From contig OZ245838.1 in NCBI GenBank assembly GCA_965228735.1, positions 6,016,001 to 6,080,000 of the forward strand: DNA of 64,000 nt, read 5' to 3'. Source of the stretch: Planctomycetota bacterium (lineage in GTDB: Bacteria > Planctomycetota > UBA1135 > UBA2386). The notes under the pieces are model-generated. The model was not told where the DNA came from. It saw nothing but the letters and a program-made list of their open reading frames with translations, and did no database searches. The position numbers and the translations under genes were made by a program. Of this stretch, positions 1 through 37,866 are shown piece by piece. Position 1 is the stretch's first letter, and each line of letters starts with the position of its first letter.

Positions 1-391
1 GCAGCGCTTGGATCTCGTCGGGCAGGATGACCCCGCCACCGCCGCCGAAGATCTGCACGTGGCCGGCACCGCGCTCCGCCAGCATGTCGAACATGTAGCG
101 GAAGAACTCGTTGTGGCCGCCCTGATAGGACGTCACGGCGATGCCCTGGGCGTCCTCGGCGATCGCCGCGTCGACGATCTCCTGGACCGAGCGGTTGTGG
201 CCGAGGTGGATGACCTCGGCGCCGGACGCCTGGGCGATGCGGCGGAAGATGTGGATCGAGGCGTCGTGACCGTCGAACAGGCTCGTGGCCGTGACGAGTC
301 GAACTTTGTGCCTCAGGGTAAGCGGGCCGTCCGCGGGGCCGTCGGATTCGGCCTGGTCCGCGGGGCGTTGCGGCGAAGCTGCAGAAGTCAC
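1..391 (-). CDS. icmF: Fused isobutyryl-CoA mutase/GTPase IcmF-type protein, N-terminal cobalamin-binding domain (runs off the window's left edge)
   Basis: Manual translation of the minus strand: [66 protein letters not shown]. DxH B12-binding motif at the N-terminus, the IcmF domain order. GTG start at 391 is tentative. Not in the ORF track. Confidence 0.85.
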
Positions 392-415: not shown

Positions 416-832
416 CTACTCGGTCGCTGCTTCCTCGGGCGCGAGCGGCGAGAAGTGCTGCGCGACGATCTTCCAGTCATCGCTCATCCGGCAGAGCGAG
501 AACGTGCACATGCCGCTCTGCTCGTGGGCCCGCCCCTCGGGGTCGATCTGAGCCATCTTCCAGCCGCCCACGGCCGTCGCGAACTGGTCGTCGAAGACCT
601 GGTAGTCCATGTCCTTGAGCTCGAGCTTGACCGAGTCGAGGTAGCGGAACTCCTGGTCGAGCACCTCCTCGAACGCGCCCCAGCCGCGGTCCTGCCGCCC
701 GCTGGCATCGAGGTTACGGAAGCGCTTGTCGGTCCAGTAATGCGAGCGGAACGTCTTCAGGTCGCGGCTGTTGAACGACTGCCGCATGCTGCGGAAGAAT
801 TCGTCCATCTCCTTCATGCTCTCGACGCTCAT
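416..832 (-). CDS. NTF2/SnoaL-like (DUF4440/YybH-type) small protein
   Basis: 138 aa, N-terminal helix then beta strands, ends with the typical WKIVAQHFS motif. Confidence 0.75.
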   Translation of the reverse strand: MSVESMKEMDEFFRSMRQSFNSRDLKTFRSHYWTDKRFRNLDASGRQDRGWGAFEEVLDQEFRYLDSVKLELKDMDYQVFDDQFATAVGGWKMAQIDPEGRAHEQSGMCTFSLCRMSDDWKIVAQHFSPLAPEEAATE

Positions 833-935: not shown

Positions 936-2309
936 TCAGCGCTCGATGTGACGGAAAAGCGGGTCCTTCGACTTCTCGTAGACGACCTTGCCGTTCACAA
1001 GGGCCGTTTCCACGAAGGTCGCATAGTGCAGCGGGTCGCCGTCGAGAATCAAGACGTCCGCGTCCTTGCCGGCCTCGAGCGACCCGACCCGGGCCTCGGC
1101 GCCGATTGCTCGCGCCGCATCCAAAGTGATCGTTCGCAAGGCCTTACGGTTATCGAGGCCGCCGCGCACGGCGTAGGCCGCATCGACGTGCGGGGTGTTG
1201 AGGTCCTGCCCGAGGATGCCGCCCGTGCCGACCGACGCGCCGCCGAAGCGCCCGCTCGGGGCCGTGACGGCGACGGGCACACCGGCCTGGCTGAGGATCG
1301 CGGCGCTCGCGAGGTTGGTGCCCGTGGTGTCCGGCTTCTTCGGGTCCGGCGCGGTCCGGTTGCGCGGGTTGAGCACGACCATCGACCCGGTCGCCGCGAT
1401 CTCGTCGGGCACGAGCCACGCGCTCATCGGGTTGTTGAGCACGACGCCCTTGCCGAACAGCTCGCTGACCCTGAGCGCCTGGCGGATCGCGTCGACGTCG
1501 CTGCCGTCACCGCCGCCGCCGCCCATCATCCGGCGGAAGCGCGCCATCCGGTCGCCGAGCTCGATCCACAGGCGCTTCTTGCCCTGCAGCACGGCGACGA
1601 TGTTCTCCGTGCCCCGCGGCACGCGCGGCTCCTTGGCCTTGGGATCCTTCGTCTTCTTGGCCGGGTACTCCGCCAGCTCGGTCAGGTACTCCTTCGCCTG
1701 TTCGACCTGCTGCGTGAGCTTGCCCCAGTCCGCGAGGCTCAGCGGCACGTTCATCGCGACCACGCTGTTCTCCTCGAGCACCATGCCGTCGACGTCGCCC
1801 CACGCGAGTTTGGCGATCGCGTTCGTGCCGCTCGGGGTCGAGCCGCCGCCCGCGCCGCCGACGAGGAACGACGTGATGCCCGCCGCGAGGCCCTGCTTCA
1901 TCTGCGGGTCGTAGGGGTTGCTGCCGTCCTTGAACGGCGCGCGGCGCGCGGCCCCCATACCCGAGCCGGCGACCGCGACGAAGCCCGGCGCGACCGTCTT
2001 GCCCTTGGCGTCGATCGTCGTGCACTTCTCGGGCAGTTCGAGGTCGTGGCCGACGGCTTCGATCTTGTCGTCCGCGATCAGCACGGTCGCGCCCGTGAGC
2101 CGCTGGCCCGTGCCGAGGTAGACGTCGCCGCCGACGATGGCGGTGTATTCCTTGGGCTTCTTCGCCTCGTCCTTCTTCTCGGGCTCGGCAGCCGGCGGTG
2201 CTGCGGGTGCCGGCGCGCGCATGCGGCCGCGGCGGCCGCGGCCCTGGCCCGGAAGGTCGGCGATGGTCGCGAGCGTGATCGTCGCGGCGAGGAGGAGCTG
2301 GATGCGCAT
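936..2309 (-). CDS. Exported amidohydrolase-fold protein (operon gene 9), metal ligands degenerate
   Basis: Signal peptide MRIQLLLAATITL; DAKGKTVAPGFV and GSLEAGKDADVLILDGDPL motifs; HxH replaced by AVAGS. Start reassigned to ATG 2309. Confidence 0.85.
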   Translation of the reverse strand: MRIQLLLAATITLATIADLPGQGRGRRGRMRAPAPAAPPAAEPEKKDEAKKPKEYTAIVGGDVYLGTGQRLTGATVLIADDKIEAVGHDLELPEKCTTIDAKGKTVAPGFVAVAGSGMGAARRAPFKDGSNPYDPQMKQGLAAGITSFLVGGAGGGSTPSGTNAIAKLAWGDVDGMVLEENSVVAMNVPLSLADWGKLTQQVEQAKEYLTELAEYPAKKTKDPKAKEPRVPRGTENIVAVLQGKKRLWIELGDRMARFRRMMGGGGGDGSDVDAIRQALRVSELFGKGVVLNNPMSAWLVPDEIAATGSMVVLNPRNRTAPDPKKPDTTGTNLASAAILSQAGVPVAVTAPSGRFGGASVGTGGILGQDLNTPHVDAAYAVRGGLDNRKALRTITLDAARAIGAEARVGSLEAGKDADVLILDGDPLHYATFVETALVNGKVVYEKSKDPLFRHIER

Positions 2310-2353
2310 TGGTGGGTCCTGCGGATGAACGTTTCTGGGCGGCTGGTGGCGGG

Positions 2354-3808
2354 CTACGGCTGCTTGCGTTCGACGGCGTGGCCGCGGAACCACACGGAGT
2401 CGATCTCGCTCGCGGGCGACAGCGGGTCTCCGGTGAACACGATGAGGTTGGCGTCCTTGCCGACCTCGAGCGTGCCGACGGACTCGTCGATGCCGAGCGC
2501 CTTCGCGGGCACGCGCGTGACGCCGGCGTAGGCGACGTCCTGCGGCAGGCCGCTGCGCACGAGCTCCATGAGGCGGAAGAACACGGACCGCGCGCTGCTG
2601 CTGTTGTCGCCGATCACGAAGCCGACCTCGACGCCCGCGTCGTGCAGCGTCCTGGCCGGGTGGGTGAGGTGACGCGACCGGCCCTTCGTCGAGAGAGCGG
2701 CCGGCAGCAGCACCGGGCAGTCGAGCTTCTTCACCTCGTCGAGCACGATGTCGAGCGTGCCCGAGTAGGGGTCGTGGCGCGTCGAGACGAGCGTGCGCGG
2801 GAACTCGAGCTCGGCGTCGATCGCGTTCTGCCAGTGCGCGAGGTCGGCGGCGGAGCCGATCTCGACGATCGCGCGCTTCTTGCCCTCGAGCAGGTCGGCG
2901 AGCACCTCGATGTTCGGGTCCTTCTTCTGCTGGCGCGTCGTCGGGCGCCGCGTCGGCTGCTTCGGCGGCTCCTTGCCCTCCGGCTTGGGAGTCGGCGTCG
3001 GCTTCGGCGTCGGCTTCGGACCGGGCTTCGGCGGCTCCTTCGTGTCGCCCTTCTTCTCGCCTGCCTTCTCGGCGGGCTTGTCGCCGTTCTTCTCGGCCGG
3101 CTTCTTCGCCTCCGGCTCTTGCGCGGGCTTGGGCTCCTCCTTGGGCTTGTTGCGTTCCTCGACGACCTTCTTGGCCTTGTCGAAGCTGTCCTTCAGCAGC
3201 TTCTTCGTGGCCGCGTCGCGCGCCATGCCGATCTGCAAGAACGCTTCACCGTCGGCAGTGAGCTCGCGGACGGTGGTGCCGTTCGGCGCGAGCACGGCGC
3301 CCGTGCCCGGGAACGCGTTGCCCGTCGGCGTGAGCGCGAGCGACGTCACGCCGGCTTCGAGCAGCTCGTGGAAGACCTTCTGCTTCGGGTAGAGCCCGTC
3401 GACGACGCGCGTCGCAGCTTTGTTGGCGGCGCGACTGCCGGACGAACGCATCGTAACGCCGCGGGGGAAGCCACGGCCGCGCCGGCTCGACCGTTGGACG
3501 AGATCCGGCTGCCCGCCGGACAGCCCCGCGCGCGAGTAGGCGCTCACGAGGCCCGGCATGATCGTCTTGCCCTCGGCGTCGACGATCTTCGCGCCTGCGG
3601 GCACCGTGGCGTCCGCGCCGACCGCCTCGATCTTGCCCTTGCGGATCACGAGCGTGCCCTGCTCGATCACCGGGCCGGCGACCGTGACGATGCGGGCGTT
3701 GGTGAACGCGACCGGGCGCCGGTCCTGGGCGCGCAGGGAATGCGGCAGCGCCGCGCAGAGTGCGGCGAACGCGAGAACGGGAAGGTGACAGTTGCGAACT
3801 CGGCTCAT
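2354..3808 (-). CDS. Exported amidohydrolase-fold protein (operon gene 8), metal ligands degenerate, Lys/Pro-rich insert
   Basis: Start MSRVRNCHLPVLAFAALCAA at 3808 overlaps upstream stop (ATGA); DAEGKTIMPGLVSAYSR (no HxH); GTLEVGKDANL. Confidence 0.85.
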   Translation of the reverse strand: MSRVRNCHLPVLAFAALCAALPHSLRAQDRRPVAFTNARIVTVAGPVIEQGTLVIRKGKIEAVGADATVPAGAKIVDAEGKTIMPGLVSAYSRAGLSGGQPDLVQRSSRRGRGFPRGVTMRSSGSRAANKAATRVVDGLYPKQKVFHELLEAGVTSLALTPTGNAFPGTGAVLAPNGTTVRELTADGEAFLQIGMARDAATKKLLKDSFDKAKKVVEERNKPKEEPKPAQEPEAKKPAEKNGDKPAEKAGEKKGDTKEPPKPGPKPTPKPTPTPKPEGKEPPKQPTRRPTTRQQKKDPNIEVLADLLEGKKRAIVEIGSAADLAHWQNAIDAELEFPRTLVSTRHDPYSGTLDIVLDEVKKLDCPVLLPAALSTKGRSRHLTHPARTLHDAGVEVGFVIGDNSSSARSVFFRLMELVRSGLPQDVAYAGVTRVPAKALGIDESVGTLEVGKDANLIVFTGDPLSPASEIDSVWFRGHAVERKQP

Positions 3809-5067
3809 CGGCAATCTCCGCTGCGGTAGATCAGACTTCCTTCGATGTAGACCTTGCTCGGTCCGATGCGCGGATCGAGCGGGTCGCCGGCCGTGACCTG
3901 GAAGTCGGCGTCCTTGCCGACGGTCAACGAACCGACGCGGTCGTCGAGGCCGATCTGTTGCGCCGGCACGAGCGTGACGGCACGAAGGGCGGCCTCGTAA
4001 GGCAGACCGAGGCGCGCGGCCATCGCCGCCTGCAGCTGCAGCTGCTCGGGCGGGATCACCGGCGCGTCGGTGTTGATGGACAGGTTGTGGCAGCCGGCTT
4101 CCCAGAACGCCTGGCACATGCCCTGCATGCGGCCGTAGCGGTCGAACTGGTACATGCGCGGGCCGAGGTTGATCGGCGTCTGCCATTCGGCGAGCGGGCC
4201 CGCCGCGATCCAGCCGTCGAACGAACCGTGCGACAGGATCATGCGGACGTCGAACACGCCCTGGAACATGCGGGCCGTCGCGACGCAGTCGCGCGCGCCG
4301 GCCGTGTGGATGAGCACGGGGACCTCGCCGTCGAACACCTTGCGCAGCTGCTCGAGCGTCGGGTCGAACTGCGGCGCCTCGCCCTTGCCGGCCCTGGCGT
4401 CGCGCCACGCGGTTGCGTAGTCGCGGCCCTTCTCGAGCGCCTGCGTGAGGAGCTCGCTGCTGCCCATGCGCGTCTGGCCGAGATCGCCGCTGTAGCGCTC
4501 CGGGTTGTAGCCCTGCGCGACCTTCATCGCGCCGAGCTCGCGGATGACCATGTCGTCGAGTCTGCTGCCCCAGCGCATCTTCATCAGCACGCCGAAGCCG
4601 CTGATGTTGGTGCCCGACCCCGGGATGAACAGCGTCGTCGTGACGCCGCCAGCGACGGTGCGCTGGATCATCTCGGTGTTGGGCTTGACCGTGTCGAGCG
4701 TGCGCAGCTCGGCGTTGATCGGCTGCACCATGTCGTTGATGTCGCCGCCGCCGCTGCTGACGTGGTGGTGCAGGTCGACGAAGCCAGGGCTGAGCCACTG
4801 ATCGCCGTGGTCGACGACCGTCGCGCCGGCCGGCAGCTTCGTCGTCGCCGCCGCGCCGACCGCGAGGATCTTGCCGTCCTGCTCGACGAGCACGCCGTCG
4901 TCGATCGGGGCGCGGTCGATCGGCAGGATGCGCGCCGCGCGATGGATCGTGACGGGGCCCGAGCCGAGGCCCTCGCGTCCCGATTCCGCTGCCCGATCCT
5001 GCGTGCCCACGCCGGCCGCGAGAGCGGCGGCGACGGCGAGGGTGCGGATCGTGGTGGTGGCGGTCAC
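3805..5067 (-). CDS. Exported amidohydrolase (operon gene 7), intact binuclear metal site
   Basis: PGFVDLHHH (HxH), AMKVAQGYNP (Lys), VLIHT, ILSHG, INTDAP; signal peptide. Confidence 0.9.
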   Translation of the reverse strand: MTATTTIRTLAVAAALAAGVGTQDRAAESGREGLGSGPVTIHRAARILPIDRAPIDDGVLVEQDGKILAVGAAATTKLPAGATVVDHGDQWLSPGFVDLHHHVSSGGGDINDMVQPINAELRTLDTVKPNTEMIQRTVAGGVTTTLFIPGSGTNISGFGVLMKMRWGSRLDDMVIRELGAMKVAQGYNPERYSGDLGQTRMGSSELLTQALEKGRDYATAWRDARAGKGEAPQFDPTLEQLRKVFDGEVPVLIHTAGARDCVATARMFQGVFDVRMILSHGSFDGWIAAGPLAEWQTPINLGPRMYQFDRYGRMQGMCQAFWEAGCHNLSINTDAPVIPPEQLQLQAAMAARLGLPYEAALRAVTLVPAQQIGLDDRVGSLTVGKDADFQVTAGDPLDPRIGPSKVYIEGSLIYRSGDCR

Positions 5068-5103
5068 GTGCCTTGGTGCTGAGGGGTGGGGGCTCGGGAG
5101 CGG

Positions 5104-6528
5104 TTACCAGACGGGGCGCTTGCTGTCGCGGCGGTAGCAGATCGTCCCACTTACGACCATGAGCTCGACGTGCGAGCGCGGATCGAGCGGGTCGCCGCTC
5201 CAGACGCCGATGTCGGCGTCCTTGCCGACGGTGAGCGAGCCGACGCGGTGGTCGATGCCGCCCATCTTCGCGGCGTTGATCGTCAGACCGCGCAGGGCCC
5301 ATTCGTGCGGCAGGCCGAGGCGCACGGCCATCGCGGCCTGCAGCGTGAGCTGTTCCTGCGCGACCACGGGAGAGTCGGTGTTGATCGAGATGCCGTCGCG
5401 GCCCACGCCGGGGACCGGGTCGCGCCAGCCGTGCTGACCGCCCATCGCCCAGTTGGCCGCGAGCCCCTCGATCTTGCCCGTGGCGCGATCGAAGTGGTAC
5501 TGGCGCGGTCCGTTCGCGATCGGCACACCGTGCTGGCGCATGTTGCCGCTGAGGCGGAACCCGTCGAACGTGCCGTGCACGACGACGGTCCAGAGGTCGA
5601 GCTCGAGGCGCAGCTCCTGCAGCGTCTGGAGGACGACCTGGTAGATCTGCGTGTGCACCGACACCGGGTACTCGTGGCGGAAGAGGCCGGATACGAGCTC
5701 GAGCGTCGGGTCGAACTTGGGCTTGTCGCCCTCGCCGCGTTCCGCCGCGAGCGTCTGCAGCCAGTAGTCCCGGCCGCGCACGAGCGTCTGACGGATGCCG
5801 TCGCTCATGCCCATCATGCCGTAGCCGAGGTCGCCGCTGCGCCGCTCGGGGTTGCCGGCCTGCGCGATCTTGAGGCTGCCGGGGAAGCGCACGAGCGCCT
5901 CGTCCGGGCTCTTGCCCCAGGTCTTGGTGATGGTGCCGAAGCCACCCATGTTGGAGCCCGACCCCGGGATGTAGAGCGCGCAGCTCACCCCGCCCGCGCG
6001 CGCGGCGCGGAACTGGTCGTGTTCCATGCTGATGAGATCGAGGGTGCGGAACTCGGGGTTCGTCGCGTGCACCGTGTCGTTGAGGTCGAAGCTCTCGCTC
6101 GCGACGTGACAGTGCATCTCGACGAGACCCGGGACGATCATCGCGTCATCGCAGTCGATGAGCTGGTAGCCCGCGGGCACCGGCGTCTCGTCGTAGGTGC
6201 CGATCGCCTCGATGATGCCGTTCTTCGTGACGACGACGCCGTCGAGGATCGGCGGCGCCGTGACGGGGATCACCTTGGCCGCGCGAAAGACGTAGCCGGG
6301 GCTCGGCAGCCCGCGCGGACCCCACTTCGCGACCTTGTAGTCGGCCTCCGTCTTCGGGCGGCGGGGGTAGTAGATCTCGAACGGCTTCGGTTCGGCCTGC
6401 TGCTCGACCGTCCGTTCGGTCGGCGCAGCGGGAGGCGCGGTCGCCCTCTCGTCCTGCGCGAACAGGCCGGGGGTGAGCAGCGCAGCGCAGGGCAGGACGG
6501 CGGCAGCGAGAGAACGGATACGCATCAT
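5104..6528 (-). CDS. Exported amidohydrolase (operon gene 6), intact binuclear metal site
   Basis: PGLVEMHCH (HxH), SLKIAQAGNP, VSVHT, VVVHG, INTDSP; start MMRIRSLAAAVL at 6528 overlaps upstream TGA. Confidence 0.9.
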   Translation of the reverse strand: MMRIRSLAAAVLPCAALLTPGLFAQDERATAPPAAPTERTVEQQAEPKPFEIYYPRRPKTEADYKVAKWGPRGLPSPGYVFRAAKVIPVTAPPILDGVVVTKNGIIEAIGTYDETPVPAGYQLIDCDDAMIVPGLVEMHCHVASESFDLNDTVHATNPEFRTLDLISMEHDQFRAARAGGVSCALYIPGSGSNMGGFGTITKTWGKSPDEALVRFPGSLKIAQAGNPERRSGDLGYGMMGMSDGIRQTLVRGRDYWLQTLAAERGEGDKPKFDPTLELVSGLFRHEYPVSVHTQIYQVVLQTLQELRLELDLWTVVVHGTFDGFRLSGNMRQHGVPIANGPRQYHFDRATGKIEGLAANWAMGGQHGWRDPVPGVGRDGISINTDSPVVAQEQLTLQAAMAVRLGLPHEWALRGLTINAAKMGGIDHRVGSLTVGKDADIGVWSGDPLDPRSHVELMVVSGTICYRRDSKRPVW

Positions 6529-9407
6529 TGCTTGCTCCGGTGATCGACGACCACGCGGCCGTTGCAGACGACGAGCAGCACGCGGCTCTGCGGCTCGAAG
6601 GGGTTGCCCGAGAACACGACGAAGTCCGCGTCCTTGCCCTTCTCGAGCGAGCCGACGCGATCCGCGATGCGGAACGCCTCGGCCGGCCAGAGTGTCAGCG
6701 CCTTGAGCGCGTCCGCGGGGCTCAGGCCGTAGCGCACGGCGTAGGCCGCGTGCATCGGCAGGTGGCGCGCGCCCTTGCACTCGCCGCTGCCGAACAGCAC
6801 GGGCTGACCGCGGTCGGCGAGAACCGCCGGCTTGTTCTGCAGCTGGCCCTTCTCGTCCTCGGTCACGACGACCGGGCCGACGATGACGGGCGGGTTCTTG
6901 CCGTTGCCGATCGCCTGATCGTCGACGAGGTCGCGCACGCCCTGCAGCACGTAGGAGATCTCCTCCTTCTCGAGCAGGTCGATCACGTCGCGCGTCGCCG
7001 CGCCGCGGTTCGTCACGACGACGAGAGCCGCGCGCTTCTCGAGCACGGCGCGGATCGGTTCGAGGTTGTGGTCGACCTTGGGCGCCTCGGGCTTGTCCGA
7101 CTTCGCTTCCTCGGCCTCCTTCGCGATGGCCTCGACCTTGCTCGGCTTGCCCTGGCTCGTGCGCTTGGCGGCGAAGTCCTGCTCGCCGAGACGGCCGAGC
7201 GAGATCTTGCCGCTCATCGACTCGCCGTTGATCGTGGCTTCGATCTTGGCGTCGCCGCCGCGGCCCATGCCGGCGAACTCGAGCACGAGCTTGCCGCCCT
7301 GGAACGAGCCGGAGTTGATCGGGCGCGGCTGCATGCGGCGGCCGCCGAAGCCGACGCTGATGTTGCCCGTGACCTTCGTGCCCTGACGCTCGAGCTCGAG
7401 GATCAGCTTGAGCTGGATCTGGCCGCGGATGTCGATGTCGGCCTCCCAGGTGCCGGTGACGGCGTCGGCGGTCTCGCCGGCGTCCTTCTCACCTTCGCCG
7501 GTCTTGTCGCCCTGCTTCGCGGCGGCCTGCTCGGCGGCCGGCTTCTCGGCGCTCGCTGTCGCGGTGCCGTCCTGCTTCTGCTGCCACTCGGCGAGCGCCT
7601 TCTCGTAGTCCTGCCACTTCTTGACGTAGGCCTTGCCGCGGTCGAGCTGCGACTTGACCGCGTTGATCGCGCCCGGGCCGATCGCGTCGTGCTGCATGCG
7701 CACGCCGGCGATCTCCCGCACGACGAGGCCGGCGCGGTCCTTGGCGCCGGTCTTGACCGCGGTCACGCGGTGCGGCGTCGCGCCGCGATCCTTGCCGGAC
7801 GCGAGCACGGTCGTCAGACCCTCCGCGAGCGCGCCCTCGAACATCGGGTCGTCGTACTCGATCGCTTCGTCGAGCCTGGCTGCGGCGGTGCCGCTCGGCA
7901 CGCCCTGGCCGTCGCCGGCGAGGCCGAGGTGCGAGAACGCGTCGACGAAGCCGGGCGTCATGACCGCCTCGCCGAGATCGATGACCTCGGCGCCGTAGGG
8001 CACCGCGAGCTCTTCGCCGACGGCCTTGATGCGACCGTCCTGCACGATGATCGTGCCGTCGCGGTAGACGCGGCCCGTCGCATCGAGGATCCGGCCGCAG
8101 CGCACGGCGAGCACCGCGCGCGTCGGCGACGGTTCGCGCTCGAACATCCGTTCGCCGCCGATCCAGGTCGACTCGACCATCGTGCCGACGGCGAGCGGGT
8201 CGCCGCTGAGGATCACGAAGTCGGCGTCCTTGCCGGCCGCGAGCGTGCCGACGCGATCGTCGACGCCGAGGATCGCGGCCGCGTCCGCGCCGATGGCGCG
8301 CAGCGCGTGTTCGCGCGACAGCCCGTGGCGCACCGCGATCGCGACCGCCATGAGGTAGTCGCGCGCCGAAACGCCGGGGGCGGGGCACAGGCCGATCTTC
8401 ATCCCGGCCGCCGCGGCCTTGGCCGGCGCGTCTGGCCGCGCTTCGAGCGTCTCCTGCTGGCGGTCCTCACCGCCCGGGTTGCGCTGGCCGAAGCGCACCG
8501 GCACGCGGAACGTCGCCGCGACCTGCTGGCCGGCGGCGCGCTCGGCGATCGGGCCGATGTGCTGCGGGTCCTCGAGCACCATCGTCAGCCCGAGCTCCTT
8601 CTGCAGCTCGAGCGCGCGGTGGATGTCGTAGGTCTTGACCGCGGCCGCGCGCACGCGCAGCTTGCCGGTCGCGGCATCGCGGATCGCGGACTCGTCGTAG
8701 AGATGCTCGGCCGGGCCCTCACCGCCGAGGCCGACGTCCTCGGCCTTGCTCGCCGCGGCTTCCGCGAACAGCGCGCGCAGCTCCGGCAGCACGGCGATGC
8801 GCGCCGTTGGCGTCTGGATGCGCGAGGGCTGCAGCGGCTCGTCGCTCGTCGGGAACGGGTTCGGCTCGAACACGCGGGGCGCGCGCACCGAGCTGTCGCC
8901 GAAGTCGACGCGCAGGCAGTTGGCGTCGTCGAGCACGCGCTCGACGATGTCGTCACCGGCCGTCTTCACGACCGCGCCCTGACCCGAGATCAGGCGCTGC
9001 CGCCCGGGTGACAGGTAGAGCGTCGTGACGCCGCCGGCGAGCTCGGCGCGGCGCCTGCGCTCGAAGTCGAACGCGTCGAGCGCGAGCGCGTCGGGCGTGA
9101 CCTGGTACTCGGAGTCGGCGGCGCCGCTGAGGTCGCTGTCGACCGCGACGATGCCGGGCATCACGACCTTGTCGCGCGCGTCCGTGACGGGCACGTTCGC
9201 GGGCGGCGCGGTCTTGCCGATGCTCTTGATCTTGCCGTTCTCGACGACGAGCCAGACGTCCTGCATGGCCGTCTTGCCGTCGCCGGTCAGCAACGTGCCG
9301 CAGCGGATCGCGCGCGCGCCGGTCTCGCCCTGCGCCGGCAGGAAGCCGGCGAGGGTGAGCAGCGCGGCCGTCGCCGCCGCCTGGAAGCGGAAGGAATGGA
9401 ATCGCAT
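6525..9407 (-). CDS. Exported protein with two tandem amidohydrolase-fold domains (operon gene 5), both degenerate, with an inserted small beta domain
   Basis: 960 aa; two copies of MPG/TPG..., G(T/S)LxxGKDADF; domain 1 AVDSD, domain 2 DAFSH in place of HxH. Confidence 0.9.
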   Translation of the reverse strand: MRFHSFRFQAAATAALLTLAGFLPAQGETGARAIRCGTLLTGDGKTAMQDVWLVVENGKIKSIGKTAPPANVPVTDARDKVVMPGIVAVDSDLSGAADSEYQVTPDALALDAFDFERRRRAELAGGVTTLYLSPGRQRLISGQGAVVKTAGDDIVERVLDDANCLRVDFGDSSVRAPRVFEPNPFPTSDEPLQPSRIQTPTARIAVLPELRALFAEAAASKAEDVGLGGEGPAEHLYDESAIRDAATGKLRVRAAAVKTYDIHRALELQKELGLTMVLEDPQHIGPIAERAAGQQVAATFRVPVRFGQRNPGGEDRQQETLEARPDAPAKAAAAGMKIGLCPAPGVSARDYLMAVAIAVRHGLSREHALRAIGADAAAILGVDDRVGTLAAGKDADFVILSGDPLAVGTMVESTWIGGERMFEREPSPTRAVLAVRCGRILDATGRVYRDGTIIVQDGRIKAVGEELAVPYGAEVIDLGEAVMTPGFVDAFSHLGLAGDGQGVPSGTAAARLDEAIEYDDPMFEGALAEGLTTVLASGKDRGATPHRVTAVKTGAKDRAGLVVREIAGVRMQHDAIGPGAINAVKSQLDRGKAYVKKWQDYEKALAEWQQKQDGTATASAEKPAAEQAAAKQGDKTGEGEKDAGETADAVTGTWEADIDIRGQIQLKLILELERQGTKVTGNISVGFGGRRMQPRPINSGSFQGGKLVLEFAGMGRGGDAKIEATINGESMSGKISLGRLGEQDFAAKRTSQGKPSKVEAIAKEAEEAKSDKPEAPKVDHNLEPIRAVLEKRAALVVVTNRGAATRDVIDLLEKEEISYVLQGVRDLVDDQAIGNGKNPPVIVGPVVVTEDEKGQLQNKPAVLADRGQPVLFGSGECKGARHLPMHAAYAVRYGLSPADALKALTLWPAEAFRIADRVGSLEKGKDADFVVFSGNPFEPQSRVLLVVCNGRVVVDHRSKQ

Positions 9408-9411
9408 CGGA

Positions 9412-10725
9412 CTACTTGTTGTCCTCGCCGCTCTTGTTGTCGCCGTCCGGGCCGCCGCCCTTCTTCTCCTTGTCCTGCTCGTCGCCGAACAGGTACTGGA
9501 GGCGCGGGTCCTTGTCGCGTTCGTAGACGACGCTGCCGTCGAGCAGCACCGTGTCGACCCACGTCGTGGCCTCGAACGGATCGCCCGTGAGCACCTGCAG
9601 GTTGGCGACCTTGCCGACCTCGATCGTGCCGACCTGGTCCTCCAGACCGAGGATCTTCGCGGGCACGACCGTCAGCGCCTCGAGGGCCTGGCGGCGCGAC
9701 AGACCGTTGCGCACGCACGTGCCGAGCTGCCACCACGGGTAGCTCGTCGGGCCGCTCGAGCCGAGCGTCAGCGCGAACGGCACGCCGGCGTCCGCGAGCA
9801 GCTTCGCGACGCAGATCTTCTTCTGCTCGCGCGTCTCCTCGTCGGTCTCGCGGTACTCGATGTTGTCGTCGAGGATCATCGGCATCTCGAAGCGCGCGAG
9901 CTTGCTCGCGGCCTCGTCCACGTCGCGACCGAGCACGATCTGCAGGTCGAGTTCCTGCGACAGGCGCAGCGCTTCACCGACCTCGGCGTAGGACGGCACG
10001 TAGAGCCAGCCCTTGGCCTTTTTTTCGACGAGCTTCGCGGCGGCCTTCTTCGTCCGGTCGTACTCCTCGTCCCACTCCTTGTCCGCGGGCTCGGCGCCGG
10101 CCTTCTTGGCGTCCTCGAACTCCTGCTTGCGGCGTTCGAAGTCGGCGATGTACTCGCGCACGTCGGCCAGCGCGCGGCGCAGCTCCCGGATCTGCTGCAG
10201 GCGCCGGCCGCGCTGGTTCATCAGCGACACCTTGATGCCGGTGTTGGCCGCGACCGTCATGTCCTCGATCGTCTTGCCGAACGGCTTCAGGACCATGCCC
10301 GAGCCGCCGAGCAACGTGCTGTTGCCGGGCTGCACGTGGACCGTGCCGACGCCGTTGCGCAGCGCGTCCTCGAAGTAGGTCGACGCCGGGTCGACCGCGT
10401 CGGCGACCGATAGCCACGGCACGTTCTGCATGCTCTCGTTGCTGCCGCGCATGCCGCCCGTGCCGTGCGCGATGACCCACGTCGGCATGACGACCTTGTC
10501 CGAGGCGTCGACGACCGTCGCCGTCCACGGGATCTCGACCTCGGTCGCCTTGCTGATCTGCTTGATGCGGCCGTTCTCGATCAGGATGACGCTGTTCTCG
10601 AGCGCCGGCCCGCTGACCGTGAGGATCTTGCCGGCCTTGACGGCGACCATGTCCTGCGCCGCGGCGGGTGCGGCGCACAGGGAGACCACCGCGCTGATCG
10701 CGGTGAGGGTGAGGAGCTTGTTCAT
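9412..10725 (-). CDS. Exported amidohydrolase-fold protein (operon gene 4), metal ligands degenerate
   Basis: Signal peptide ending AAAQD; VVMPTWVIAHGT (one His); GTIEVGKVANL. Confidence 0.88.
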   Translation of the reverse strand: MNKLLTLTAISAVVSLCAAPAAAQDMVAVKAGKILTVSGPALENSVILIENGRIKQISKATEVEIPWTATVVDASDKVVMPTWVIAHGTGGMRGSNESMQNVPWLSVADAVDPASTYFEDALRNGVGTVHVQPGNSTLLGGSGMVLKPFGKTIEDMTVAANTGIKVSLMNQRGRRLQQIRELRRALADVREYIADFERRKQEFEDAKKAGAEPADKEWDEEYDRTKKAAAKLVEKKAKGWLYVPSYAEVGEALRLSQELDLQIVLGRDVDEAASKLARFEMPMILDDNIEYRETDEETREQKKICVAKLLADAGVPFALTLGSSGPTSYPWWQLGTCVRNGLSRRQALEALTVVPAKILGLEDQVGTIEVGKVANLQVLTGDPFEATTWVDTVLLDGSVVYERDKDPRLQYLFGDEQDKEKKGGGPDGDNKSGEDNK

Positions 10726-11948
10726 CGGGAGGTGTGGACCGGTTGACCGTCGACGTGGACCGAGACGGGGGTGGCCGTGGGGTGAAGGGGATCGTGGGAC
10801 CAGACGACGAAGTCGGCGTCCTTGCCCGTGGCGAGGCTGCCGACGCGATCGTCGATGCCGAGGAGGCGGGCGGGGAGGATCGTCACCGCGTCGAGCGCGA
10901 GCTCGGGCGCGATGCCGTTGCGCGCGGCGAACATCGCCTCACGCACGAGGTCGAGCGCTTCGGGGTTGGTACCCGTCGTGATGACGAACGGGATCTTGCG
11001 GTCGGCGAGCTTGGACACGGTCGCGCCGCGCGGGTCGGCACCGTCGCGCCCGGCCGTGCCGGCGACACGCTCCGCGCTCGGGGCGCCGAGCAGCACAGTG
11101 ACCTCGGCCTTCTGCAGCTCGTCGAGGACGTAGTAGGCGTCCTGCGCGTCGTCGATGACGGTCTTGTAGCCGAACTCTTCGGCGAGACGCAGCGCGGTGC
11201 GGATGTCCTGCTCGCTGCGCGCGGTCGTGAACGCCGTGAGGTTGCCGGCGAGGACGCGTTTCAGCACCTCCATGCCGGGGCTCGGCGTCGGGTCGCCGCC
11301 GTCGAGCGTGTTCTCCTCCTTGGCCTGGAAGAACGCCTGCCGCGCGGCCCACACGACGCCCATGCGGGTCGTCGGCCGGCGGTAGTAGATCGAGTCGATG
11401 CGGCCGCCGCGGATCGCGCGGTTGCCGAGCGACGGTTCGCTGCCCATGACGAGACGCATGCTGGCCTCGCGATCGAGGATCATCTTGCTCGGGCTGCTGC
11501 CGAACGTCTTGATCGCGCAGCCGAGACCGGAGATCACGTTGCGCGTCCCGGGCATCACGTGCACGGTCGTCACGCCGGCCTCGCGGGCCCGGACGAACGC
11601 CGGATCCTCGGGGTCGATCGCGTCGAGCGCGCGCATGTGCGGCGTGACCTCCTCGCTCTGCTCGTTGAGGTCGGTGTAGTCGACGCTGATCTGAAACGAC
11701 GCGTCGACGAGGCCCGGCGTGATCACCTGACCCGCGCAATCGACCGTGACGGCGCCGTCGGGGATCGGCGTCGAAGCACCGCCGACGGCCTGGATCTTGC
11801 CGCCGGCGACGATGAGCACGCCGTCAGCGATCGGCGCGCCGCCGCCCGGCATGATCGTCGCACCCTTGTAGACCGTCACACGGTCCTGCGCGGCGAGCGG
11901 ACTCGCGACGACAGCGGCGAGGAGAACGGACAGAACGGGCGAACGCAT
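10722..11948 (-). CDS. Exported amidohydrolase-fold protein (operon gene 3), metal ligands degenerate
   Basis: Start MRSPVLSVLLAAVVASPLAAQD at 11948 (TGATG overlap); TPGLVDASFQ (no HxH); GSLATGKDADF. Confidence 0.88.
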   Translation of the reverse strand: MRSPVLSVLLAAVVASPLAAQDRVTVYKGATIMPGGGAPIADGVLIVAGGKIQAVGGASTPIPDGAVTVDCAGQVITPGLVDASFQISVDYTDLNEQSEEVTPHMRALDAIDPEDPAFVRAREAGVTTVHVMPGTRNVISGLGCAIKTFGSSPSKMILDREASMRLVMGSEPSLGNRAIRGGRIDSIYYRRPTTRMGVVWAARQAFFQAKEENTLDGGDPTPSPGMEVLKRVLAGNLTAFTTARSEQDIRTALRLAEEFGYKTVIDDAQDAYYVLDELQKAEVTVLLGAPSAERVAGTAGRDGADPRGATVSKLADRKIPFVITTGTNPEALDLVREAMFAARNGIAPELALDAVTILPARLLGIDDRVGSLATGKDADFVVWSHDPLHPTATPVSVHVDGQPVHTSR

Positions 11949-13129
11949 CAGCGGGTTTCCTCGGAGGTCTTGGTCTGGTTGGCGCGCTTCGACTCGGAGC
12001 CGCGCAGCAGCGTGCCGTCCACCCAGCACGCGACGTGCGCGCTGTGCAGGTCGAGCGGGTGACCGCTCCACACGTTGAAGTCGGCGGCGCAACCGCGGCG
12101 CAGCGCGCCGACCGTCGCGGTCTGACCGAGCAGGTCGGCCGGCGTGCGGGTCAGCGCCTGCAGCGCGACGGCGCGATCGAGGCCGTGCCGCACGGCGAGT
12201 ACCGCGGACAGCCGCAGCTTGCTCGGGTCGCCCGCGAACGCGAACGGCACGCCGGCCGCGGCGAGCTCGGCGGGCAGGCGGAGCTGCTCGAGACGCATCT
12301 CGGGGCGCAGCGTCGACAGCACGATCGCGGCCTTCTGCGCCGCGATCCGGTCCATCACCTTCTTCGCCTCGGCGCCGCCGACGATGACGGGGCTGAAGCC
12401 GAACTCCTCGGCGAGGTCGAGCAGGCCCGACAGCTCGGTGTAGGTGTCGGCGTGCGCGAACACGCGGCGCGAGCCGTCGAGCACCTCGCGAACGATCGCG
12501 ACGGCGGGGCCGCCCTGCGTGCCCTTCTGCGCGTCGCCGAACACCGTGCGGAGCATCTCGAGCGCGCCGATCAGCGATGTCGGCGCGCGCTGCTGATCGC
12601 GCGCGACCTTGGCGATCGACAGCTGCAGGTGCAGCTCGCGTTCGGCGATGCGGCCCTGGGCGTCGTCGCCGCTCTTGCCCGGCTTGGCGAGCGCCGCGAG
12701 GCCGCCCGCGACGTTGCGCGGCGACGGCGACAGCGCGACCGACGTGATGCCGGCGTCCGGCAGCTCGTCGAGCTCGTCGTTCCACGGATCGAACGCTTCG
12801 GCGGCGAGCAGGTCGGGCGTGAAAGCGAACGCGGCCTCGGCGAGGTCGCCGTCCTGGCTCAGCGTCGACTGCGCGAGCACGAAGCCCGGCGTGATCGTCG
12901 CGTCGCCGTAGTCGAGGCGGCGGGCCGTGCGGCGCGCTTCCGCGGGGATCTCGTCGCCGAGGTAGAGGACCTTGCCGTCGCGCACGAGCAGCTGGCCCGG
13001 CGAGAGGACGGTGCCCGGCGCGACGACGATGCGCTGCGCCTGGATCAACAGGTCCTGCGCGTTCGCCGCGGCGGTCAGAACGCCGAGGGCGAGACAGAAG
13101 GAGGGAAGGGAGCGATGCATGACGAGCAC
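11948..13129 (-). CDS. Exported amidohydrolase-fold protein (operon gene 2), metal ligands degenerate
   Basis: Signal peptide ending ANAQD; TPGFVLAQST (no HxH); GALRRGCAADF. True start may be ATG 13120. Confidence 0.85.
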   Translation of the reverse strand: MLVMHRSLPSFCLALGVLTAAANAQDLLIQAQRIVVAPGTVLSPGQLLVRDGKVLYLGDEIPAEARRTARRLDYGDATITPGFVLAQSTLSQDGDLAEAAFAFTPDLLAAEAFDPWNDELDELPDAGITSVALSPSPRNVAGGLAALAKPGKSGDDAQGRIAERELHLQLSIAKVARDQQRAPTSLIGALEMLRTVFGDAQKGTQGGPAVAIVREVLDGSRRVFAHADTYTELSGLLDLAEEFGFSPVIVGGAEAKKVMDRIAAQKAAIVLSTLRPEMRLEQLRLPAELAAAGVPFAFAGDPSKLRLSAVLAVRHGLDRAVALQALTRTPADLLGQTATVGALRRGCAADFNVWSGHPLDLHSAHVACWVDGTLLRGSESKRANQTKTSEETR

Positions 13130-13131
13130 GA

Positions 13132-14883
13132 TCAGTTGGCCTCGTATTCGGTGCGGCCCTTGCCGAGCACGAGCAGCACGCGGCTGTCGCTCTCGAACAA
13201 CGGTCGGTCGAAGATCACCACGTCGGCGAACTTGCCGCGGGTCAGCGACCCGGTGTCGCGGTTGATGCCGAGGATCTCGGCGGGGGTGAGCGTGATGGCG
13301 CGCAGCGCGGCGGCCGGGGCGAGGCCGCGGCCGACGGCCGTCGCGGCCATGAGCGGCAGCAGCGACGCGTGCCGCGCCTTGCCGGTCGCGATCGCGAACG
13401 GCACACCGGCCTTGTCGAGGTGCTGCGGTGCCGCGGCCGGATCGAACGCCTCGTAGAGCTTCGGCATGCTGCTCGGCAGCACGTCCGTCAGCACGACCGT
13501 CGCGCCGGCTTCGCTGATGGTCTCGGCGAGCTGGGCGACGCCGTAGGCCTGCTCGAGCACGAGCAGCGGCACTTCGGCCGCGCGCTGCAGCGCGAGCGCG
13601 GCGCGCAGTTCGTCCGGGCGGTGGGCTTCGACGCGCAGCGGCATCTCGCCTTCGAGGACCGCGAGCAGGGCTTCCTTCGTCGGGTCTTCCTTGACCGGCT
13701 TGGGGTAGGTCGGGCGCTTCGGCGCCTCGTCCTTCTTCGCGGCCGGCTTCTGGTCGTCGCCCTTCTTGTCGCCGGCTCCCTGCGCGGGCTTCTCGCCCTC
13801 ACCCTGCGGCGGCTTGCCCTGCGGGTCCTGCGCCGTCGCGGCGGGCTCGGCTGCGAGCAGCTCGAGCATCTCGAAGAACGCGGCCTCGAACTCGGGCGAC
13901 GCCAGCAGCTCTTCGCCGTTCATCGCGTTGCCGCCACCGGGTGGGCCGCCGCGCCGGCGCCGGCCATCGGCGCCGCCGGCGTTGCCCGGCCGGTTGCCGC
14001 CGCCGCGGCGTGCGTTACCGGACTCGCTGCCGCCGTCCTTGCCGTCCTCGGCCTTCTTCTTGGCCTTGTTCTTCTCGTGCCACTCGAGCCACTTCTTGAA
14101 GTCCTCGGCGTACTTGTCGAGGTCCTTGTTGTACTTCTGCTTGGCCTCTTCGTACTTGTCGAGACCGTCGAACGTCTTGAGCAGCGCGTCGAGTTGCTGC
14201 TGCCGCGCGAGCGCATGGGTCGGCACCGGACCGCGCGTCATGCGCAGCTGCACCGCGGCCTTGCTCTTGTCCTCCCACACCTCGAAGCCGTCCTTCCGCG
14301 GCCGCACGATCGCGCCCTGCCCTGCCGGCGCGCTCACGTAGGCGACCGTGATCCCCGCCGCCGCGAGCGCGTCGTCACGCGTGTGCCGCAGCTGCAGGTC
14401 GTCGGCGAGCGCCATGCCCGCGTCGAGCTGTCCGGTCTGCGTCGCGGGATCGGTGAACGCGTCGGTCTCGGCGTCGATCAGGCCCGGGTAGACGTGCCCC
14501 GCGGGGAACGCCCGCACGGTCGCGCTCTCCGGGATCTCGACCTCGCCCTGCTTGCCGACCGCGAGGATGCGCTCGCCGCGAATCAGCACGACGCCGTTCT
14601 CGATCGCCGGACCGCTGACCGGGTGCACGTGGCCAGCGGTGATCGCGATGACGGGCTGGCGGCGGCTGCCCCGACCTTGGCGACCGGGACCCTGGCGACC
14701 AGCTCGGTTCCCGCGGCGGTTGCCGCCCTGGCGACCCGGGTCCTGGGCCCCGGCCCGCTCGGTGCCGGCCCGTTCGGATTTCGGCGCGGGTTCGGGTTCC
14801 TGCGGTCGCACCACTGATCTGGCCGGCAGACCCAGGGTCGAAAGGAGGAACAGGACAGGGAAGTGCCAGGGAATCCTGCGCAT
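13132..14883 (-). CDS. Exported amidohydrolase-fold protein (operon gene 1), metal ligands degenerate, long low-complexity insert
   Basis: Start MRRIPWHFPVLFLLSTLGL at 14883; YPGLIDAETD (no HxH); GSLTRGKFADV. Confidence 0.85.
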   Translation of the reverse strand: MRRIPWHFPVLFLLSTLGLPARSVVRPQEPEPAPKSERAGTERAGAQDPGRQGGNRRGNRAGRQGPGRQGRGSRRQPVIAITAGHVHPVSGPAIENGVVLIRGERILAVGKQGEVEIPESATVRAFPAGHVYPGLIDAETDAFTDPATQTGQLDAGMALADDLQLRHTRDDALAAAGITVAYVSAPAGQGAIVRPRKDGFEVWEDKSKAAVQLRMTRGPVPTHALARQQQLDALLKTFDGLDKYEEAKQKYNKDLDKYAEDFKKWLEWHEKNKAKKKAEDGKDGGSESGNARRGGGNRPGNAGGADGRRRRGGPPGGGNAMNGEELLASPEFEAAFFEMLELLAAEPAATAQDPQGKPPQGEGEKPAQGAGDKKGDDQKPAAKKDEAPKRPTYPKPVKEDPTKEALLAVLEGEMPLRVEAHRPDELRAALALQRAAEVPLLVLEQAYGVAQLAETISEAGATVVLTDVLPSSMPKLYEAFDPAAAPQHLDKAGVPFAIATGKARHASLLPLMAATAVGRGLAPAAALRAITLTPAEILGINRDTGSLTRGKFADVVIFDRPLFESDSRVLLVLGKGRTEYEAN

Positions 14884-15220
14884 GTGGCCGGGCGATCGGG
14901 GTCTAGCGGGGGGCCGCTGGTGCGGCGCGGGGGGCCCCGCATTTACGGCGACGGGACGATGGTCTGCCAACCCTTTTTGCAGGCCCCGGTGCAACTTGGG
15001 TGTCGCGGGGCCGCCGGGCGGCAATTGTGCGGTGCGACGGAAGGTCGGACCGTCACAGTCAACCGTTGCCCATCGGCGGCACCCTGAGGCACGACAACCA
15101 CTTCGAAGTCATCGTCATCGGGCCCAGGATGGGCGGTAAACCGCTGATAAGGGTAAGATCGCCGGCGTTCTGGTGACGACCGGAGCCGGACCCGCGGACG
15201 CAGCGGGAAGAGAGTCGCCC

Positions 15221-17647
15221 ATGCGTAACACCGTCTCGATGTCCACCTGCCTCTTTGCGCTTCTGGCCTCGGCCCAGGCGCAATCGACGCTGCAGTGGCA
15301 GCCAGGATCCGCCATTCCAGGACCGATCGATGGCTACGGTCTCGCCCTCGTCGGCTGGGACCCTGACGGGTCGGGACCGCTCCCCGAGCGCATGGTGGTG
15401 GGTGGATCGTTCTTCGATGCCAGTGGTCAGGATCTGGGGACCGTCCTCGCCTTCGATCCGGCGGGGGTCAGCTGGACGTCGGTGTCGTTGGACAACTCGA
15501 CCGTTCGACAACTTGTGGTCCTGCCGAGCGGCGATCTCGTCGCTGCAGGCACGCTGTTCCTGCCCGGCACTACCACCAACATCGGTATTGCGTTCTGGGA
15601 CGGGCAAGGGTGGCAGGCTCTCGGTGGCGGCCGCAGCCGAACCGTCAGCGTCGTCACGCTCATGGCGAATGGTGACCTCGTTGCTGGTGGCGAAGCGCTC
15701 GAAGTCTGGGACGGTTCGGCGTGGAGCGTGATCCCGACGCCGATCGCCAACGCCAGCTCGTACTTGCCGCTCGCGCTGTCGAACGGCGATCTGGCCGTCG
15801 CCTTCGCCACCCCGACCGGTGCGTTCCTCGGCGTGCGGTCGGCCGCCGGTTGGCAAACCTGGGGCGCGTTCTCGACGCCGCCGATCGGCAGCTTCGTGTA
15901 CTCCATGGCCGCGTTGCCGAACGGCGACTTCGTCGTGGGCGGGGTCTTCGAAGCCGTTGGCGGCGTCGCCTCGCCCGATCTGATTCGGTTCCATCAGGGC
16001 GCTTGGGTGCCGTTGCCGCGGCCGGGTACGCACCGCGTGCCTGTACGCTTGTTCGCCCGCCCGGACGGCAGCGTGCTGATGGCGAACTACGCGGCAAGCG
16101 TGCTGCGGTGGGACGGCACCGATTGGATCTCGTTCGGCTCGCCGCTGTCGCAGATCGGCGCGTTCGGAGAGACCTCGACCGGTGAGCTGTTCGTCGCGGG
16201 TGGGTATTCGCACGATTTGGACGGCGTCGTGCGGCGCTACGACAGCGGCGCGTGGCGGCCGCTCGGGCACGGGTTCACGAGCCCGATCCTCGATCTCGAG
16301 GTCGACGCGCGCGGCGACCTGTTCGTTGCCGGAGAATTCGATCAGGCGGGTGACACGGCGGCGTTCGCGGTCGCGCGTCGTGACGCCGCCGGCTGGCACG
16401 CGCTGGGTGCAGGGCCGCGGAGTCCCGCGCAGACCGTTCTGCCGCTGACGAACGGGAACGTGGTGACGGGTACTTCGCACGGTGACGTCGAACTCTGGGA
16501 TGGCGCCCAATGGCGGACCATCGGGGATCTCGGCTACTACGCCGTCAAAGCCCTGATCGAACTCCCCAACGGCGACGTCGTCGCCGGCGGCAGGTTCAGC
16601 GCCACGGCGCGCCGCGTCGCGCGCTGGGACGGCTCCGCGTGGCACGCGCTCGGCACGGGGCTCGGTCCACCATTCAACGGTGGCGAGTACGATTCGGTCG
16701 AATGCCTGCTCGCGATGCCGAACGGTGATGTGATCGCGGGCGGCTACTTCAAGGACCCCAACAACAACAACCAACTCTGGAATATCGCGCGCTGGGACGG
16801 CAACAGTTGGGCGGCAGTCGGGCCGGGCATCGGCTCCGGGAACAGGGTCGTCGACCTCGCGTTGGCGCCGGATGGGAGCCTGCTCGCCGCGGTGAGGGGG
16901 GGATACAACCCGGGCATCCGGCGGTGGGACGGCACCGCCTGGTCGGCATTCGCAGTCGTCAACGACAACATCTTCGCGATCGACGTCCTGCCCAACGGCG
17001 ATCTCCTCGCAGGTGGCTCGTTCACCCAGATTGCCGGAGTCGCGGTTGCGGGGCTCGCGCGGTGGGACGGTAGCGTGTGGGCCGCGGTCGACCCGAGCGT
17101 CGGCCCAGTCGTCGAGGCGCTGGCGCACACGCCCGACGGCACGGTCCACGCCGCGACCCATATCGGCGCCTTCTGCTGCCGGCTCGAGATCCAAGGCGTC
17201 ATCACCCGGCACTACGCCACTCTGACGACGCAACTCCAGGCGCGCGCGGATCGGATACCGACGCCGTGCGTCGGCCCCGCCGGCCCTCTCGAGTTGACCG
17301 CGGCCGCGCTGCCGTGGATCGGCACGACGTTCCGTTCGACGGCGGCGGGCTTCGCGCCGGGAGCCCTGGCGCTCGCGATCGCCGGCACGGCGCCGCGCAA
17401 TCTGCCGCTGTCGCTGGTCTTGCCGAGTGCGCTACCCGGTTGCCACCAACTCGCATCGAGCGAAGTCGCCGCGTTCGCGATCCCGAGCGCCGGTGCCGCG
17501 TCGTTCGAGTTCGCCATTCCGAATACGATCGTCCTCGCACAGCTGCAGGCCTGGCACCAGTTCCTCCAACTCGAACTGACCCCTCAGGGCGTCCCCCTGA
17601 CTCTCAGCAGCAGCAACGGCCTGCACCTCGTCATTGGTGCGTTCTAG
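15221..17647 (+). CDS. Secreted beta-propeller repeat protein (WDG-x-x-W / PNGDL repeats) with conserved C-terminal domain
   Basis: Signal peptide ending AQAQ; about 13 repeats of ARWDGxxW...LPNGDLxAGGxF; paralog of 55367-57826. Confidence 0.85.
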   Translation: MRNTVSMSTCLFALLASAQAQSTLQWQPGSAIPGPIDGYGLALVGWDPDGSGPLPERMVVGGSFFDASGQDLGTVLAFDPAGVSWTSVSLDNSTVRQLVVLPSGDLVAAGTLFLPGTTTNIGIAFWDGQGWQALGGGRSRTVSVVTLMANGDLVAGGEALEVWDGSAWSVIPTPIANASSYLPLALSNGDLAVAFATPTGAFLGVRSAAGWQTWGAFSTPPIGSFVYSMAALPNGDFVVGGVFEAVGGVASPDLIRFHQGAWVPLPRPGTHRVPVRLFARPDGSVLMANYAASVLRWDGTDWISFGSPLSQIGAFGETSTGELFVAGGYSHDLDGVVRRYDSGAWRPLGHGFTSPILDLEVDARGDLFVAGEFDQAGDTAAFAVARRDAAGWHALGAGPRSPAQTVLPLTNGNVVTGTSHGDVELWDGAQWRTIGDLGYYAVKALIELPNGDVVAGGRFSATARRVARWDGSAWHALGTGLGPPFNGGEYDSVECLLAMPNGDVIAGGYFKDPNNNNQLWNIARWDGNSWAAVGPGIGSGNRVVDLALAPDGSLLAAVRGGYNPGIRRWDGTAWSAFAVVNDNIFAIDVLPNGDLLAGGSFTQIAGVAVAGLARWDGSVWAAVDPSVGPVVEALAHTPDGTVHAATHIGAFCCRLEIQGVITRHYATLTTQLQARADRIPTPCVGPAGPLELTAAALPWIGTTFRSTAAGFAPGALALAIAGTAPRNLPLSLVLPSALPGCHQLASSEVAAFAIPSAGAASFEFAIPNTIVLAQLQAWHQFLQLELTPQGVPLTLSSSNGLHLVIGAF

Positions 17648-17867
17648 GATTCACGCGAGACCTCCCCCAGCCTGCGCAACGCGTCCCGCCCCCCAGGCGC
17701 CGCCGATGCGGTTGTGGTAGGCCTTCGGGCCGCGGATTCCGGAACGCGGGCGGCGTCGACCGGGGCCGGGGGCCGGTGACGCGGCCCCGCTTGGCGCCGC
17801 CCGCGGCGGCGGCGAGAATCTCCGGGGATTGCCCGTCACGCCATGCCACGCGGCGGCGTCCGGGCCC

Positions 17868-37696: not shown

Positions 37697-37866
37697 CGAC
37701 GGGCAGCACCGGTGTTGCAAACTCCGACAGCGGCAGCTCGCCCGCGCGGAGCGCGTTCGTGCCTCGTTCTGAGACGAGCCCGGGGTTCCGCAGAACCCGG
37801 AGGCAGGGAAATGCCGATAGGCCGCGAACACCTATTCCGGGATGTCCCCGTCAGGAGTGTCTGCGA

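Follow-up and report, generated by a model that had tools for sequence, protein, structure and literature searches.

In the amidohydrolase superfamily, the HxH, Lys, His, His and Asp residues form a binuclear metal site that includes a carboxylated Lys, as described in the accessible part of PMC13081902, and an earlier note on the DNA studied here had correctly assigned them to the metal centre. The metformin hydrolase MetCaCb is a heteromer of paralogues: only one subunit carries the binuclear metal cluster, and the other is needed as a binder; unlike the system studied here, it has a ureohydrolase fold, two subunit kinds and a hexameric form (accessible part of PMC11271267). In Pseudomonas ATCase, an inactive dihydroorotase homologue is required as the scaffold of the enzyme complex, so that one dead kind serves an unrelated enzyme (accessible part of PMC7053772). 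In this study, a 64,000-nt stretch of Planctomycetota DNA (contig OZ245838.1, hereafter the window) was analysed. Nine successive minus-strand open reading frames (ORFs) at 936–14883 of the window encode ten amidohydrolase domains. Two of these are of the catalytic type, and eight are dead, that is, without the full set of metal-site ligands. The genes are named A to I, all positions are those of the window, and X denotes the catalytic-type domain class, represented in the window by F and G.

The operon was found to be a real, phylum-wide and apparently undescribed candidate for an enzyme–pseudoenzyme heteromer. A literature search, for which subscription journals were mostly outside reach, returned no description of a nine-kind amidohydrolase operon; the earlier note had likewise known of no such system.

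Domain organization and metal sites

The gaps between successive genes from A to I were 11, −1, −4, 4, −4, 36, −4 and 44 nt. All nine proteins matched Pfam Amidohydro_1/Amidohydro_3, and E matched over two stretches, giving ten domains. The ORFs, gaps and Pfam matches thus bore out the nine joined genes and ten domains read in the earlier note. Contigs from two of three public runs, possibly the source samples, spanned the operon stretch whole with zero differences. Neither a sigma-70-type promoter for the operon nor a terminator on its strand was found.

Genes A to D each encode one dead domain. A (13132–14883, 583 aa, exported-type) has AETD at the HxH site and a long charged low-complexity insertion; B (11948–13120, 390 aa) has AQST, C (10722–11948, 408 aa) ASFQ, and D (9412–10725, 437 aa) AHGT. 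E (6525–9407) consists of two dead domains joined by a linker of about nine residues: E1 (8124–9407, AVDSD), which bears the signal-peptide-like start of the protein, and E2 (6525–8123, AFSH). E2 contains an inserted small all-beta domain (7155–7454, model residues 622–721) that follows a long helix and has eight predicted strands. The two X genes are F (5104–6528, 474 aa, F-subtype, MHCH) and G (3805–5067, 420 aa, G-subtype, LHHH), which are 43% identical. The remaining dead genes are H (2354–3808, 484 aa, AYSR), in which a long insertion is rich in Lys, Glu and Pro, and I (936–2309, 457 aa, AVAGS). Longer insertions, mostly Lys/Glu-rich, occur at one helix position in A, D, E2, H and I.

The metal ligands of F were H139, H141, K220, H292, H318 and D385, and G also had all six. 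The other eight domains retained zero to two of six, even when a slip of two residues was allowed, and their HxH-site motifs were those given in the earlier note. The alignment confirmed that F and G alone keep the full set. Judged by the binuclear-type ligands of 3MTW and 3OOQ, F and G carried the site and A–E, H and I did not. In two sets of relatives, the six ligands were complete in 97 of 97 X domains (64/64 and 33/33) and in none of 507 non-X domains (0/284 and 0/223). No dead class had a conserved replacement ligand set among its aligned orthologues; a rebuilt alternative metal site, for which the earlier note had proposed a check, was in no case seen in full in the degenerate domains.

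The structures of F and E were modelled by AlphaFold2. The F model had a predicted local distance difference test score (pLDDT) of 88 and a predicted template modelling score (pTM) of 0.89. In the E model (pLDDT 87.6, pTM 0.62), both dead domains were fully folded. The template modelling (TM) score to a 3OOQ chain was 0.80 for F and 0.85 for E. The models suggest that the dead domains keep the whole amidohydrolase fold. Both models matched amidohydrolase structures, which together with the Pfam matches of all nine proteins places the set in the superfamily, with its TIM barrel and beta-sandwich fold.

The only close solved structure was 3OOQ, an amidohydrolase of Thermotoga maritima MSB8 with ten chains in the entry. 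It is a structural-genomics entry, and its title gives no function. The scores to 3OOQ were 154.8 bits for G, 274.6 bits for the X profile and 161 bits for dead C. The motifs NE..TP..RALD, PGS.N..GG.G, NP.R and TRMG were shared with 3OOQ, placing the proteins in the 3OOQ-like subfamily, which is presumably CDD cd01309. X and 3OOQ have the same HxH, K, H, H, D set, whereas X has AQxxNPE where 3OOQ has AFGENPK. 3OOQ is a homomer of one gene product; the operon, in contrast, encodes nine diverged kinds with signal-peptide-like starts, and in eight of these the metal site is missing.

More distant families matched less well. None of the NCBIfam families (HutI, Xaa-Pro dipeptidase, PhnM, NagA and dihydroorotase) reached its cut-off, the best score being 114 bits against 500. 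The next-best structural matches were the cog1228 metallo-carboxypeptidases/prolidases (3MTW Cc2672, 3FEQ/3N2C and 2QS8) and ochratoxin amidohydrolase ADH3. They share the binuclear fold at 13–19% identity and TM of about 0.5–0.57 (one sequence per entry), a distance at which the substrate is not transferable. Metal-dependent bile salt hydrolases, described as Amidohydro_3 proteins in the accessible parts of PMC13081902 and PMC13081988, were set aside.

Export signals were examined with a hydrophobicity heuristic, not SignalP, with the best start chosen. All nine window proteins began with a short, mostly basic N-terminus and a hydrophobic stretch, usually followed by an Ala/Gly-Gln site, in line with the signal peptide that the earlier note had read in each gene. 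By this heuristic, an N-terminal hydrophobic stretch was present in 293 of 308 operon genes, compared with 177 of 1740 internal windows. A lipobox was found in only 4 of the 308, a pattern (SPI-type without lipobox) that suggests soluble Sec-exported proteins. Gln stood first in the predicted mature protein, after the Ala/Gly-Gln site, in 221 of the 293 window proteins and orthologues with a hydrophobic stretch. This resembles the N-terminal pyroglutamate "Q-rule" of Bacteroidota.

Conservation across Planctomycetota and the wider family

The presence of the system was surveyed in a sample of 201 genomes from the whole phylum, with a cut-off of E<1e-100 for D orthologues, and loci were read in 84 Planctomycetota genomes (40 + 20 + 11 + 13). 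The sampled genomes are related to each other and are not independent samples, and several loci were cut by contig ends. The gene order A-B-C-D-E1E2-X(n)-H-I was found in all 84 genomes, and no other order was seen; the check on conserved order proposed in the earlier note thus came out in its favour. The operon layout is not a product of chance, since the same layout recurs across the phylum. Of 269 gene junctions, 254 were at most 50 nt, and 141 overlapped or abutted.

D was found in 57 and X in 58 of the 201 genomes, and 56 of the 59 with either had both. The mismatches were one genome with D only (G080) and two with X only (G042 and G153), each of the latter with an H match adjoining X; all three are fragmented assemblies. 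In the taxonomic order of the window genome, E was matched in 40 of 41 genomes. Exceptions to linkage were few: ABCDE and XHI lie at two separate loci in G184 and G169, and I sits elsewhere in G076. The full set of modules was retained even in these genomes, and G127 carries two operons. The 14-kb operon is present in about 29% of the sampled genomes, including some of 2.2–2.9 Mb, which points to an important envelope function.

A tree was built from 348 domains, without 13 fragments shorter than 300 aa and without the G pieces of G022, which are frameshifted. All nine position classes were monophyletic, with support of 0.93–1.0 except for A (0.44), so each operon position forms its own clade, as the earlier note had proposed to check. 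The ten window domains are old paralogues, as they are only about 23–43% identical to each other in full-length local alignments. Mean pairwise identity across 28 genomes was 40–50% for the dead modules and 57% for X. The ratio of nonsynonymous to synonymous substitution rates (dN/dS), also among the checks proposed in the earlier note, was 0.06–0.24 for the dead modules in the three closest genome pairs, indicating purifying selection. In five more distant pairs it was 0.2–0.7, probably raised by saturation at synonymous sites. On the basis of the identities, clades and dN/dS, a recent tandem duplication was rejected, as was decay into pseudogenes. The dead paralogues are conserved, under selection and co-inherited with X, as in an enzyme–pseudoenzyme system.

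The number of X genes was counted in operons with both X flanks visible. In the taxonomic order of the window genome, 1, 2, 3 and 4 X genes were present in 13, 25, 3 and 1 of 42 operons, respectively. In other lineages, 36 of 39 operons had one X gene and 3 had two. The fixed number of two catalytic domains supposed in the earlier note was therefore not upheld, with X genes running from one to four and usually one outside that order. The F-type and G-type subclades are old, and each occurs as the sole X in some genomes: G-type in G031 and G038, and one F-side copy in eleven others. The invariant part of the system is the eight dead domains, to which is added one catalytic kind whose gene number varies.

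E1 and E2 were fused throughout the operons. Other in-frame fusions, in which a linker joins the modules and only one signal peptide is present, were H-I in G064, A-B in G090 and A-B-C in G232; further in-frame fusions were A-B in G056 and in the second G127 operon, and A-B-C in G202. More A-B-C, A-B and H-I fusions occurred among the best 150 matches of a representative search. The observed fusions join dead modules only and occur in separate lineages. No longer fusions containing X or D were found, with about 8000 candidates scored per search. An apparent X-H fusion (P0151, G022) and an apparent E1-X fusion (G225) proved to be frameshift read-through and were rejected. Frameshifts in operon genes of L051 (G022), L133 (G225) and L103 (G104), possibly assembly errors, mimic fusions or split genes.

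Simpler combinations of active and dead domains exist in the same 3OOQ-like family. Outside the window but in the same genome, a triplet locus (G000:C1:3099240-3103687) encodes a dead-beta-active fusion and a dead gene, and a pair locus (G000:C1:5726088-5728780) encodes an active and a dead gene. Three-domain dead-active-dead chains of 1300–1550 aa are widespread (P0012, P0015, P0019, P0029, P0159, P0173 and others), with named relatives from Aquisphaera, Phycisphaerae and Tenacibaculum; their middle domains keep the six ligands where aligned. These pairs and triplets, annotated as "imidazolonepropionase-like" or "amidohydrolase family", share the fold and likewise place active and dead domains side by side or in one chain, but they comprise two or three kinds, compared with nine in the operon. 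No functional paper on them was found in the literature. In a wider tree, in which deep support was weak, their domains formed clades separate from the operon modules, suggesting that active–dead pairing arose more than once.

Proposed assembly and alternatives

The fusions of neighbouring dead modules and the strict co-occurrence of D and X support joint assembly. Some mixed assembly, whatever its exact composition, is likely. The form favoured here, with a probability of roughly 0.6, is a ten-domain double ring like 3OOQ, in which the eight dead kinds and X would assemble outside the cytoplasm with two catalytic slots. A benchmark of complexes with 10–30 chains gives 3OOQ as a dihedral homomer (accessible part of bioRxiv 10.64898/2026.08.06.736029), and because the entry has ten chains, 3OOQ is taken to be a D5 decamer. 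Eight dead domains and two X make ten, equal to the domain count of the window and the chain number of 3OOQ.

In the proposed mechanism, all subunits would be exported by Sec to the periplasm. The set would have been derived by duplication of a 3OOQ-like homo-oligomer, each dead paralogue having taken a unique position. A lone X gene might fill both slots, or F-type and G-type isoforms might share or exchange them. The predicted function, judged from sequence, is that of an exported amide hydrolase: X would cleave an amide bond through a binuclear metal centre bridged by the carboxylated Lys. The likely substrate would be a peptide or an N-acyl amino acid bearing a carboxylate, because the next-closest structures are carboxypeptidases/prolidases and at least 93% of X domains retain the Arg of the GPR motif. 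The dead subunits may stabilize X and determine how it is reached, by shaping or gating the access path; their charged helical arms, together with the beta-domain of E2, may act as docking surfaces.

Several observations weigh against the double ring. With X genes ranging from one to four, an 8+2 composition requires a single gene to supply two copies. Codon bias of the same X orthologue did not differ between single-X and multi-X operons (0.034 vs 0.029, p=0.59); a first comparison had given p=0.007 as a sign of a double-dosed lone X, but that signal came from G-type genes and was gone with the same orthologue. The pTM of 0.62 leaves fixed packing of E1 on E2 not established. Ten is not a multiple of the three domains in the dead-active-dead relatives, so that rings of different sizes may exist within the family, and the decamer assignment of 3OOQ is drawn from two sources. 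G129 has a stand-alone X-type gene (L126:8780-10000) apart from its complete operon, which leaves room for X acting alone. No neighbour gene was conserved across taxonomic classes in 60 loci, and none pointed to a substrate.

The main alternative, though unlikely, is a mixed assembly with one copy of each of the nine kinds (a 9-mer or 18-mer), possibly arranged in the triads A-B-C, D-E1-E2 and X-H-I. Additional X genes would then be exchangeable isoforms of a single slot, in agreement with the single X gene usual outside the window genome's order. The fusions also follow the triads, never joining C-D or E2-X, and two natural splits fall at E2/X. The family often has chains of the dead-active-dead type, and the window's own genome has a triplet locus; the operon modules, however, branch apart from the triplet domains in the weakly supported deep part of the tree. 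The D-E1 and X-H fusions expected from such triads were not found in limited searches, the X-H case being a frameshift, and the sole solved relative, 3OOQ, has ten chains and is listed with dihedral symmetry.

It is improbable that X is its own homo-oligomeric periplasmic enzyme and that the dead paralogues are co-regulated ligand-binding, sensing or structural proteins. Remnant pocket residues would suit such roles: H1 is kept in 83% and Lys in 88% of D orthologues, the Arg of the GPR motif in 96% of I orthologues, and H2 in 55% of E2 orthologues. The orphan X of G129 and the E1-E2 packing, which was not confidently predicted, are also compatible with X alone. However, X without dead partners was found in 0 of 201 genomes, and no transporter or signalling gene was among the conserved neighbours. 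Independent proteins would also leave unexplained the invariant order, the retention of eight dead kinds and the restriction of fusions to neighbours.

Activity of some dead domains through a changed or single-metal site would make the operon a multi-enzyme pathway. B is the class that most often retains remnant ligands in relatives (H1, K and H3), with conservation of 39% for H1, 16% for H2, 42% for K, 32% for H3 and 9% for the Asp. By lenient counting, 9 of 61 B copies had four or five of six ligands, and copies with up to four or five occurred in G011, G014, G016, G038, G064, G152, G155 and G232. A pathway is nevertheless very improbable, since these few lineages stand against ligand residues poorly conserved within B, a window B without both HxH His and without Lys, and replacement ligands conserved in no dead class.

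The ten-domain double ring can be extended to a wider proposal, put forward tentatively. A homo-decameric amidohydrolase may, long ago, have become a fully asymmetric periplasmic particle in which each of eight dead subunits is unique and two catalytic slots are exchangeable. By analogy, and as part of the same tentative proposal, the particle could be an envelope counterpart of proteasome or CCT specialization, either a gated hydrolase or a scaffold with charged arms that pick out macromolecular substrates.

Surroundings of the operon and comparison with known systems

A SnoaL-like gene without a signal peptide (416–832, minus strand) lies 103 nt downstream of the operon, followed by the start of a B12-binding mutase-type gene (2–391, minus strand). 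The SnoaL-like gene adjoined 25 of 60 loci, all in the taxonomic order of the window genome, and the two genes were syntenic in 24–25 loci of that order only. The SnoaL-like gene is a lineage-limited neighbour and probably not part of the system. On the other side, a repeat protein (15173–17647, plus strand) is divergent from the operon; it and a second one (55370–58240, minus strand) are exported-looking, with weak Rax2/DUF5122 beta-propeller matches. The gene at 17829–20204 (plus strand) encodes an ECF-type sigma factor that is extended at its C-terminus by about 600 aa. ORFs of 1242, 347, 515 and 374 aa (37642–42407, plus strand; 26833–28377, plus strand; 50471–51592, minus strand) showed coding-like base bias and no Pfam match at 1e-5. 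Ordinary genes in 20299–64000 were those of Mfd, RNase III, TypA/BipA, a di-haem peroxidase, an S8 peptidase, ABC exporters, an RpoZ-like protein, RsfS, an H+-pyrophosphatase, a sirtuin and GT4 glycosyltransferases.

In the enzyme–pseudoenzyme heteromers known so far, the number of dead kinds is usually one or two. If the assembly is real, a system that keeps eight different dead paralogues, in the same order in several lineages of a phylum, would be an extreme bacterial case. The homomer, pair, triplet and nine-kind forms make a natural series in which to ask whether such complexity is adaptive or the product of a ratchet, and the single cloneable operon makes the system directly testable. 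In the 20S proteasome, the CCT chaperonin, the RNA exosome core and the CRMP hetero-tetramers, duplication turned a homo-oligomer into a heteromer of fixed order; many of the subunits have no catalytic activity, and catalytic isoforms can replace one another. Except for CRMP, these systems have unrelated folds, and they are cytosolic and mostly eukaryotic, whereas the system described here is bacterial, of exported type and encoded in one operon.

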